Assembly: GCA_001244265.2 (NCBI GenBank)
Contig: CDLV01000006.1
Location: forward strand, 1 to 64,000
Reading direction: 5' to 3'
Origin: Microbotryum violaceum
Lineage: Eukaryota
DNA: 64,000 nt
Shown here one piece after another: positions 26,589 to 29,012 of this stretch (positions within the stretch are counted from its first letter, which is position 1; every line of letters begins with the position of its first letter). The notes below the pieces were generated by a model. It was not told the DNA's origin. It saw nothing but the letters and a program-made list of their open reading frames with translations, and did no database searches. Both the position numbers and the translations under genes were made by a program.

Positions 26589-28178
26589 CCTCACAGCGCC
26601 CAAAATGTACTCGACGCTGAAATTGCGGTATGCTCCTGACGACGCCACTCGCACGCTCGAGCTCTTCTCCCGACTATGGACTTTCCGGCCCATGCCCGGC
26701 ACCGTTGGCGAATTCGACGGCTGGATCATGGAGTTCAAAGCCATTGCGCAAGAAATCATTGATACGAAGACGACTATCAACGATGTTCTCGCCACACTCC
26801 TCCTCGCCATTGCACACCCGTCCCTTGAGAGCTTCAAGGCGTCGTTCACCGATGAACAGCGCACTCAACGAGCTCTCCCTGCCATCGATTTGCTCGCCGA
26901 CCGCATGCGTGTTCAACTCCGGTCCACCAACGTCCCCAGCACCCAATCGGCCCTTCTTGCCTCGTCGTCACGTCCTACCCGTCCCAAGTGTCTCGCCTGT
27001 CGCAGCCCTTCGCACCGTGTGGCGGAGTGCCCTGTGAGAGCAAAACACCCGCCGCCAGGACCCTGTCGCTCCTGCAAGCAGAATCACTGGTCTTTCGACT
27101 GCAAAAAGGCTCTCGAGAACGGCAAAAAGGCCGACACGGCGAACTCGATCGCCGACTCGCAACACCATGTCGGATGTATCGCCACCAGTCTTCTCGCTCG
27201 TCGCCGCCAGCTTCGCACCAACTCTTTCGTCGTTGACTCGGGGGCCACCTCGCACATGGTCTCGGACAAGTCGCTGTTCACGACCTATCGCCACATCGCT
27301 CCCACAAAGATTGGAGGCATTGCAGGGGCATCAACGCCATCGGAACGGGAAACATTGCCTTTGTTGCCGCCTCGGGCCATCCGATCACGCTCACTGGCGT
27401 GCTGCACACTCCCGGCCTGTTTGTCAATCTCCTCTCGGTCTCTCGACTTTGCGACACCGACGACGTCCGTGTTGCCTTCACAAAACACGGCATTGACATC
27501 GACAAAGACGGCAACAACATCGCTGAAGGCACGAGGCTCGACGAGGGACTCTACTTGCTCGACGCTGATCATTCCAAGTGTCAGCACCTTGCTCTCCTCT
27601 CTCGTTCACAGTCTTCCGTGCCCCTGCTGATTCTCCACCGCTGCCTCGGCCATCTCGCACGTCGGAACCAGCAACATGGTGGCCGACATTTTCACTAAAG
27701 CTCTTGGACCTAAGGTATTTTCGACGCACTGCTACGCCCTTGGCCTTCGCACTCGACACCACGGCTTGGGTCTGCCTCGCATTCGCGTGGGGGGGGGTGT
27801 GAAGAGTCCACTCTCAGCTCGACAGAGGTGCCTCGGTCGTCGCGCGCACCCGCTAGCCCGCCCCTTGCGGTGGGGACTTAGGCGCGCGGGACTGCCTCAG
27901 CGAGCAGGCGCCAGTGGACTCGGGCGCGCGCCGCTAGGCCGCCCCCTTGAGGTGGCGACTTAGACGCGCGCAGCTGCCTCGGCGCCCTAGCAAGTTCACC
28001 TGCGGCTGGGCCTATCCCAGTGCGGGCCCCCTTTCTGTTTCTTAGCTTCCCTCTCACCACTTCTGTTCAACAACCAACCTCTCCTGACATTAGTGGTGAT
28101 TGTCTCATAGGTATGCTGAAATAGACCACTTCTGTTCGACAACCAACCTCTCCTGACATTAGTGGTGATTGTCTCATA
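26589..28178 (+). mobile_element. Copia family B, internally deleted (gag-PR joined to RNase H end near 27660; 3' LTR 27798-28178)
   Basis: [27 protein letters not shown] and DSGATSHM, then [10 protein letters not shown], poly-G PPT and LTR. Confidence 0.9.
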
Positions 28179-29012
28179 GACGTCGTTGGTGTCGCAAAGT
28201 CGAGAGACCGAGAGGAGATTGACGAACAGGCCGGGAGTGTGCAGCACACCAGTGAGCGTGATCGGATGGCCCGAGGCGGCAACGAAGGCAATGTTTCCCG
28301 TTCCGATGGCGTTGATGCCCCCTGCAATGCCTCCAATCTTTGTGGGAGCGATGTGGTGATAGGTCGTGAACAGCGACTTGTCCGAGACCATGTGCGAGGT
28401 GGCCCCCGAGTCAACGAGAAAGAGTTGGTGCGGAGCTGGCGGCGACGAGCGAGAAAACCGGTGGCAATACATCCGACATGGTGTTGCGGGTCGGCGGTCG
28501 AGTTCGCCGTGTCGGCCTTTTTTCTGTTCTCGAGAGCCTTTTTGCAGTCAAAAGACCAGTGATTCTGCCTGCAGGAGCGACAGGGTCCTGGCGGCGGGTG
28601 TTTGGCTCTCACAGGGCACTCCGCCACACGGTGCAAAGGGCTGCGACAGGCGAGACACTTGGGACGGGTAGGACGTGACGACGACGAGGCAAGAAGGGCC
28701 GATTGGGTGCTGGAGACGTTGGTGGACCGGAGTTGAACACGCATGCGGTCGGCGAGCGAATCGATGGCAGGGAGAGATCGTTGGGTGCGCTGTTCGTCGG
28801 TGAACGACGCCTTGAAGCTCTCGAGGGACGGGTGTGCAATGGCGAGGAGGAGTGTGGCGAGAACATCATTGATAGTCGTCTTCGTATCGATGATTTCTTG
28901 CGCAATGGCTTTGAACTCCATGATCCAACCGTCAAATTCGCCAACGGTGCCGGGCATGGGCCGGAAACTCCATAGTCGTGAGAAGAGCTCGAGCGTGCGA
29001 GTGGCGTCATCC
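28179..29012 (-). mobile_element. Copia family B gag-protease fragment, inverted
   Basis: Reverse-complement match to ~26640-27465. Confidence 0.9.

Follow-up and report, generated by a model that had tools for sequence, protein, structure and literature searches.

The window analysed here, a 64,000-nucleotide (nt) stretch of GC-rich eukaryotic DNA, is a nest of retroelements, and within it we studied a 69-nt stretch with intron-like edges at positions 28111-28179. It forms the second of two tandemly repeated copies at the U5 (unique 5ʹ) end of a long terminal repeat (LTR) of a Ty1/copia retrotransposon from a Microbotryum fungus. The LTR belongs to a copia family that we call B and, as delimited by comparing the window with itself in BLAST (self-BLAST), occupies 27798-28178 on the plus strand, starts with TGTGAAGAG and ends with CTCATA after a duplicated U5 end. 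It stands in the 3ʹ-LTR position of a rearranged element and is not a 5ʹ LTR. A polypurine tract with nine G (27789-27797, plus strand), read from the sequence, directly precedes it, and GTGGGGGGGG likewise precedes the LTRs A1, A2 and A-minus of a second family, A, and the 3ʹ LTR of family B.

A repeat search resolved the end of this LTR into two 55-nt units on the plus strand, unit 1 (28056-28110), which ends with CATAG, and unit 2 (28125-28179), which carries CTGAC at 28154-28158. Between them lies a 14-nt linker, GTATGCTGAAATAG (28111-28124, plus strand), which has a donor-like start and contains ATG CTG AAA TAG. The two units are identical at 54 of 55 positions (98%) with a spacing of 69 nt, the single mismatch being A/G at 28069/28138. 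The stretch running from GT to AG, 28111-28179, is thus 69 nt long, with the A of CTGAC 23 nt 5ʹ of the final G. An earlier note on this DNA had described an intron-like duplicated LTR end at 28057-28179; the layout, the length and the signals all hold, and the start moves to 28056. G28179, the last base of the acceptor-like TAG, lies outside the LTR; an inverted gag copy begins with this base. The unit contains an inverted repeat, TCACCACTTCTGT and ACATTAGTGGTGA (28054-28099, plus strand), whose 13-nt arms are 85% complementary and 20 nt apart. It is a predicted U5 hairpin, and its fold z-scores are weak (−0.9 to −2.3).

The surroundings of this LTR are rearranged. An inverted copy of the gag segment 26641-27467 (28180-29008, minus strand, 95.9% by self-BLAST) is joined at the LTR end. 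By self-BLAST, 27653-28101 resembles 31577-32029 at 96.2%. A second family B LTR (31723-32029, plus strand) is broken off within the 3ʹ arm of the unit's inverted repeat, and abutting this LTR, which is inverted relative to it, the minus strand carries a diverged unit, then the unit tail GATCGTCTCATAG and then the linker GTATGCTGAAATA (32027-32093). The junctions at 28179 and 32029 both fall at or within the U5 unit, which hints that templates were switched at this place. A snap-back origin of the 32029 junction was considered and rejected, as its two sides differ past the 12-nt arms. Two further features of these junctions were recorded. The inverted gag copy is joined exactly at the repeat-bearing LTR end and, together with 27653-28179, replaces about 325 nt of the protease-integrase region of family B. 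The segment 32027-32110 is palindrome-like, consisting of the broken LTR, the reverse complement of unit tail plus linker, and the diverged unit, and last comes a gag-like minus-strand open reading frame (ORF) with a zinc-knuckle-like motif.

A solo family B LTR (19471-19810, plus strand; 82% between 19471-19803 and 27798-28110 by self-BLAST) lacks the 69-nt unit, ends with GTCTCATAGTCTCATA and is flanked by the target duplication AAGAT. A copy at 24698-25037 is the same insertion, doubled with its surroundings, because both lie in a direct segmental duplication of 5.36 kb (15500-20857 and 20723-26084, 99.8% identical by self-BLAST). The claim that the solo LTRs at 19471 and 24698 lack the unit was right for both, but they therefore count as one independent case. 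The duplication itself has the form of a tandem copia array with common LTRs (LTR-internal-LTR-internal-LTR), in which the solo LTR is doubled too. At the end of the solo LTR (19795-19810 and 25022-25037), where the 69-nt repeat sits elsewhere, the 8-nt string GTCTCATA occurs twice.

The same layout was found in family A. When we searched the window for the linker core GGTATGYTGAAAT with up to two mismatches, seven matches were obtained against 1.65 expected, and none of 100 shuffled sequences reached seven. Five matches are exact (5955 and 32027 on the minus strand; 8164, 13159 and 28110 on the plus strand) and one has a single mismatch (4861, plus strand). These six are located at LTR ends, while the seventh (61916, minus strand, two mismatches) is not. 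Within the window, unit, linker and unit follow one another in all four family A LTRs and in the one full family B LTR end. The 5ʹ LTR of A2 (7825-8231, plus strand) has units at 8110-8163 and 8178-8231 with the linker GTATGTTGAAATG, and its primer-binding site (PBS) GGTTATCAGCCC starts at 8232. The 3ʹ LTR of A2 (12822-13226, plus strand), 98.5% identical to the 5ʹ LTR, also has two units. With a spacing of 68 nt in both, the repeat copies measure 57 nt in the 5ʹ LTR and 54 nt in the 3ʹ LTR, where they are 100% identical. The other two family A LTRs are the 3ʹ LTR of A1 (4482-4925, plus strand; linker GTATGTTGTAATA) and the A-minus LTR (5899-6191, minus strand; linker GTATGTTGAAATGGA), each with two units. 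The view that families A and B have a donor spacer in common is borne out by the near-identical linkers of these four LTRs, and CTGAC does sit at a similar distance from the end, 22-23 nt, in both families.

An LTR type near family A, type C, has a single unit (17402-17855, plus strand; adjoining PBS GGTTATAAGCCC), with copies ending at 23081 and 26588. By self-BLAST, the elements that carry type C LTRs are internally 92% identical to A1, compared with 88% for A2 and A1. As the type C carriers are closer to A1 than A2 is, the single-unit state is a loss. Two side observations concern these LTRs. The U3 part of family A and C LTRs contains a 38-39-nt tandem repeat, GGACTTAGGCGCGCGGAGCGAGCC.., in 3.5-5 copies, the number varying among LTRs (arrays at 4504-4749, 7855-8040, 12852-13035, 17613-17756 and 26346-26492). 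A2 has no target-site duplication (7820-7829 and 13222-13231), with TTGTG on the left and CACCA on the right, and the minus-strand elements that flank it on either side are not the same, a sign that two insertions may have recombined.

To compare the families base by base, twelve LTR ends were aligned. Between the end of the A2 3ʹ LTR and that of the family B LTR, 88 of 165 aligned columns (53%) are identical, which shows that the A and B units are homologous; the statement that the family B repeat differs from that of family A is thus only half true. Blocks common to both are TTAGCTTCC, CTGAC, TAGT and ATAG. In this comparison, of the per-base kind proposed in the earlier note, the linker is the best conserved 13-nt window between A and B, with 12 of 13 positions identical against 10 of 13 in the next best windows. 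By our own simple binomial estimate this has a probability of about 0.003 per window, which is only mildly significant given the number of windows. In single-unit LTRs, where there is no intron to splice, CTGAC and the ATAG end are conserved to the same degree.

One explanation of the conserved linker, which we consider improbable, is that it is kept as an upstream ORF (uORF) encoding Met-Leu-Lys-stop that tunes gag translation, the surrounding repeat being incidental. The linker reads ATG TTG AAA TGA in family A and ATG CTG AAA TAG in family B, so that the difference is synonymous and the stop is kept via another codon; moreover, the single-unit leader of the type C element C1 is without an upstream ATG. 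However, such a uORF is very short, and an in-frame stop at that codon is expected by chance in about 3 of 16 cases per family. A1 reads ATG TTG TAA, the A-minus linker has lost the stop and runs to 10 codons, and the homologous linker of the family E described below has no ATG. A kept stop would also be expected as damage control if the ATG served another purpose.

A third copia family, which we call E, has a 5ʹ LTR on the minus strand (14873-15447), the start of which we infer from a TGTGAG motif; it is the only LTR of this family within the window. Its U5 part, at about 14894-15250, consists of five modules of 75 (as cut), 68, 73, 68 and 73 nt. Each module ends with GCTTGAGCAG; the first four are then followed by GTGAGC or GTGTGT, and the fifth by a 16-nt tail and the PBS GGTTATTAGCCC (14872-14861). 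Higher-order copies of 141 nt are 98% alike. In place of the A/B linker stands the 13-nt GTGTGTAACAAAG, which matches the A/B linker at about 9 of 14 positions by eye. CTTAC lies about 17 nt before the module ends, which are CAG, and the module period of 68-73 nt is common to families E, A and B. The number of units is thus one in type C and solo B, two in A and B, and five in E. Because the linker is common to A and B and recognisable in E, the layout was inherited and not created afresh in each family. Derivation of the linker from sequence 5ʹ of unit 1 was tried and found unconvincing, with only TGTT in common.

The two units of an LTR change together. ACACCG is found in both A-minus units, ACATTG in all four A2 units, and ACATCG in A1 and three type C units. 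Similarly, both units of the family B LTR have AACC, ACATTAG and GATTGTC, where the solo LTR, the second family B LTR (B3) and the minus-strand piece have AATC, ACAGTAG and GATCGTC. Five lineage states are shared between both units of an LTR, compared with three private ones, and the units of one LTR differ by 0-2 mismatches. Copies within an array are therefore more alike than copies of different lineages, as in concerted evolution. Three of the shared changes are not explicable by the mutational process considered below, and it follows that the units are homogenised, or that the repeat is remade from time to time.

The edges of the modules are copies of the junction between U5 and the PBS (A/GGT). 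A PBS of the form GGTTAT.AGCCC, as exact matches, was found directly 3ʹ of the LTR in all four copia 5ʹ LTRs of the window, at 8232, 14872, 17853 and 23079, the last two being duplicates. As the LTR ends with A and the PBS starts with GGT, an AGGT junction results; AG/GT edges would thus arise automatically, without selection for splicing. The direct repeat of the A2 5ʹ LTR extends through ATAGGT and so covers the first 3 nt of the PBS, and the module edges of family E, CAGGT, resemble the LTR/PBS junction. The last G of the acceptor comes from the base after the LTR, which belongs to the PBS in 5ʹ LTRs and is a chance G at 28179. The proposal that the G of the PBS completes TAG held at three family A and C junctions (8231/8232, 17855/17856 and 23081/23082, the last two from the same duplication), and no family B 5ʹ LTR was present in the window for the same comparison.

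The sequence after the LTR is complementary to the anticodon loop, stem and D arm of a transfer RNA (tRNA), as in a half-tRNA PBS. Complementarity of PBS plus leader to the tRNA extends over about 25-36 nt (8232-8267, 17856-17890 and, on the minus strand, 14872-14837). When GGTTATHAGCCCA..GAGCTACCAG, the 25-nt family E form, one base shorter than the string of E itself, was searched against metagenomes, all four matches were tRNA genes according to ARAGORN. Opposite the first anticodon position the three families have C, A or T and never G. As a separate observation, the Ty3-like LTR ends at 41846-41875 and 48781-48810 are followed by ATTTATGAGCCC, an anticodon-loop type of PBS with G, and then by an A-rich run.

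These data bear on another explanation, to which we assign a very low probability, that the linker is a second PBS, or what remains of one or of an LTR-LTR junction, and that plus-strand synthesis copied it either from the primer tRNA or from the border of polypurine tract and U3. The linker begins with GGT like the PBS, the repeat of A2 takes in these 3 nt, and, judged by eye alone, the start of the family E LTR looks similar to the linker of that family. GGTATG would place G opposite the first anticodon base, where the working PBSs have C, A or T. Past GGTAT, however, the linker resembles neither the PBS nor its tRNA-complementary leader. No complement of the linker was found in the window outside LTRs, and the sole tRNA gene of the window does not match it. 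Besides, A and B each have their own form of the linker, pointing to inheritance and not to recopying from a host RNA. As a tRNA complement the linker gave no fit in the anticodon-arm registers by hand. A match of 12 of 15 bases between the tRNA at 35727-35807 and the family A LTR end was judged to be chance, since by our own estimate about 1.6 such matches are expected. Relatives were also sought elsewhere. The linker pattern had 72 matches in viral contigs, which are attributed to chance, none of the 72 having a flanking repeat. Linker plus PBS gave no matches in metagenome contigs, and no relative was found when viral contigs were searched with the family B pol protein.

Taken as a whole, we favour, tentatively and at somewhat less than an even chance, the interpretation of the 69-nt stretch as an old, concertedly evolving leader repeat of U5 that is kept by copy-choice recombination. 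The module would be a U5 segment of about 55 nt with an internal inverted repeat plus a linker of 13-14 nt. During copying of U5, reverse transcriptase would change template between the repeats, within one RNA or between two packaged RNAs. Such copy choice could delete, add and homogenise units, and a switch from unit 2 to unit 1 would yield exactly a single-unit LTR. The GT and AG edges would be a by-product of the AGGT formed where the LTR end meets a PBS that pairs with the anticodon arm, and the conserved linker would have some cis function. The position of the module 5ʹ of the PBS and the presence of short uORFs suggest that it belongs to the 5ʹ leader, the part of the transcript from the start site to the PBS. 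A leader scan found two uORFs in A2 (3 and 7 codons), one in B (3 codons) and two in E (2 codons each), and no upstream ATG in the single-unit leader of C1. Because the upstream ATGs of the module are all closed within 2-7 codons, ribosomes may scan the unspliced leader, at least in part of the RNA.

Several points weigh against this copy-choice interpretation. Direct repeats are easily lost in reverse transcription, as is established for retroviruses. Survival of the two-unit state across families that are 25% diverged inside argues for selection, which copy choice leaves unexplained, and the linker is more conserved than its surroundings. The hairpin is only predicted, with fold z-scores of −0.6 to −2.3 overall, and a repeat search of the family A unit found no inverted repeat. 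A purine at +3 and G at +5, as in good 5ʹ splice sites, are common to GTATGY, GTGAGC and GTGTGT; this pattern is absent from GTTATC of the PBS, so the rest of the donor is not explained by copying of the junction. Finally, two of the five changes shared between units are TCG to TTG, so that the case for homogenisation rests on three. A process like repeat-induced point mutation (RIP) in Microbotryum targets TCG to TTG, according to one report (PMC10502011), and the two changes could stem from such a process acting in each unit independently.

Since a direct repeat that survives for so long argues that the two-unit state is useful, an intron remains a serious explanation. In this case, which is possible but to our judgement doubtful, linker plus unit 2 would be an intron of the 5ʹ leader, removed by the spliceosome, that arose when a segment spanning AGGT was duplicated in tandem. 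It might be kept because splicing sorts transcripts, spliced RNA serving as messenger RNA (mRNA) and unspliced RNA as genome, or because a donor-bound spliceosome aids expression. Splicing would recreate precisely the leader with one unit, and single-unit LTRs such as type C would arise when spliced RNA is reverse-transcribed. The expected arrangement is indeed present: unit 1 is followed by G/GTATG and unit 2 by G/GTTAT, removal of one copy restores the parent, and the single-unit type C LTR is the predicted product of unit removal. GT donor, branch and AG acceptor lie at fitting distances, with TAG/GTATGY at the start, CTGAC 22-23 nt before TAG/G and a length of 68-69 nt, and in the 5ʹ LTRs of A2 and type C the G of the PBS completes the acceptor. 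That new introns can arise by duplication across AGGT is documented (PMC3265369, PMC4974935). The size of the module fits a fungus with short introns, and the only host intron definable in the window, with GTCAGT, CTCAC and CAG, is 85 nt long. In addition, complete modules are rare. When donor-like sites were scanned for a CTRAY branch and YAG within 50-120 nt, 20 of 137 sites on the plus strand qualified, four of these 20 being the LTR modules described here, compared with 14 of 274 on the minus strand. The modules of family E also start with GTGAGC or GTGTGT, have CTTAC about 17 nt from the end and end with CAG, but they fail the strict CTRAY branch test.

The earlier note had concluded that selection acts on the splice signals rather than on the repeat sequence. 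The well-placed G/GTATGY, CTGAC and TAG, the linker as the best conserved A/B block and the modules of family E speak for this conclusion. On the other side, AG/GT follows from the U5/PBS junction, and CTGAC and ATAG are kept as well in single-unit LTRs as in the others. The donor explains 6-7 of the 13 linker bases, and six of the conserved ones (TGAAAT) have no splicing role. The T/C and TGA/TAG differences between A and B fit a kept three-codon uORF at least as well. Furthermore, the stops kept after the linker ATG imply scanning of the unspliced leader by ribosomes, and an efficiently spliced intron 5ʹ of the PBS would erase itself from the progeny.

A self-erasing leader intron is a further version of this explanation, which we regard as unlikely. 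Such an intron, consisting of repeated U5 sequence, lying inside U5 5ʹ of the PBS and kept by families A, B and E, would sort the RNA into two pools. Spliced RNA would be translatable with an unchanged LTR/PBS junction, and when packaged would give single-unit progeny, while unspliced RNA would still have the linker and a second hairpin, for use in packaging or reverse transcription. Of 15 sequencing runs listed, none is recorded as RNA. Among the 15 joints listed of a total of 29, from contigs of four of these runs and covering 12701-32700, there was no skip of 28111-28179 or of its family A counterpart, a result that is uninformative either way for splicing.

The wider setting agrees with the assignment to Ty1/copia. 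Pfam domains in ORFs at 1-32000 follow the copia order, Pol_BBD, gag_pre-integrs, rve, SH3_retrovirus and RVT_2, and gag, protease, integrase and reverse transcriptase stand in the order typical of Ty1/copia. Pol_BBD, gag_pre-integrs and rve were found at 793-2520, rve, SH3_retrovirus and RVT_2 at 28982-30565, and RVT_2 at 30566-31558. Direct LTRs, a polypurine tract, a PBS and a 5-bp target duplication are all present, the structural evidence being spread over several elements (the 98.5% identical LTRs of A2, the PBS at 8232, and AAGAT on both sides of the solo family B LTR). A long interspersed nuclear element (LINE) occupies 35839-40134 according to Pfam, and Ty3-like pol genes, also identified with Pfam, lie further right. 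In or beside a Ty3-like LTR, at 41341-41784, a 223-nt unit occurs twice (98%), each copy closing in an A run, and resembles a small poly(A)-tailed insert that was duplicated. An Rfam search over the window gave a tRNA gene, probably intron-containing, at 35727-35807 on the minus strand (49.6 bits) and no other match. ARAGORN called it a tRNA for Glu with an odd anticodon position, and the LINE ORF, with endonuclease and reverse transcriptase, begins about 30 nt away. At 62049-63207 on the minus strand lies a host gene that encodes a Pinin/SDK/memA domain and has a single intron of 85 nt (GTCAGT to CAG). Its product shares 98% identity with a protein of Microbotryum silenes-dioicae and 67% with one of M. 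intermedium. Because of the 98% identity, the host is taken to be an anther-smut fungus (Microbotryum) or a close relative.

The transcript of an LTR retrotransposon is both messenger and genome, and how these roles are divided is poorly known for copia-type elements. A repeat at the U5/PBS border that is kept by three diverged families, with a conserved linker and splice-like edges, suggests that the leader contains a cis element not recognised so far. Were splicing to occur, the repeat would offer a clear instance of a mobile element with an intron that arose by AGGT duplication, and single-unit LTRs would derive from spliced RNA. Without splicing, it would still illustrate how reverse transcription can drive concerted evolution and changes in copy number, and would also call for caution in dating LTRs in Microbotryum, where bursts are timed by LTR divergence (PMC10502011). 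What appears to be new here is the homology of A and B units with a conserved linker, the concerted change of units, the modules of family E, the edge formed by a junction copy, and the linker uORF. A search of the literature at the level of titles found no account of a U5 tandem repeat or an LTR intron in fungal copia elements, nor, at the same level, any mention of an intron-like module that is built from a repeat and lies, in a copia element, between the PBS and the start of transcription.

Tandem repeats are common in the LTRs of retroviruses and LTR retrotransposons, usually in U3, as with enhancer repeats. The repeats described here are like them in being head-to-tail copies whose number varies among relatives and for which template switching is an explanation. 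They differ in that they lie at the U5 end and touch the PBS, include a copy of the junction, and have a linker common to diverged families. Half-tRNA priming, in which the PBS pairs with the anticodon arm, is known from Drosophila copia and yeast Ty5. Here too GGTTAT.AGCCC comes straight after the LTR and is complementary to the anticodon loop and stem and into the D arm, whereas none of the three copia variants matches a CAU anticodon at its first base.

Intron gain through tandem duplication of an AGGT segment, with splicing demonstrated, is reported for host genes (PMC3265369, PMC4974935). As in those introns, the direct repeats have a GT donor and an AG acceptor at their edges, and removal restores the original. 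In contrast, the present case concerns the LTR leader of a retrotransposon, AGGT is the LTR/PBS junction, and the module is known from sequence only. Spliced retroelement RNAs are represented by the spliced integrated retrotransposed elements (SpIREs) of L1 (PMC5860796), the RNA pools of BARE (PMC3735527) and the Penelope intron (PMC2377424). These systems are alike in having usable splice sites in their transcripts, and spliced forms can return to the genome as shorter elements. Apparently, however, none of these systems has a donor and an acceptor that lie together in U5, 5ʹ of the PBS, and derive from a direct repeat.

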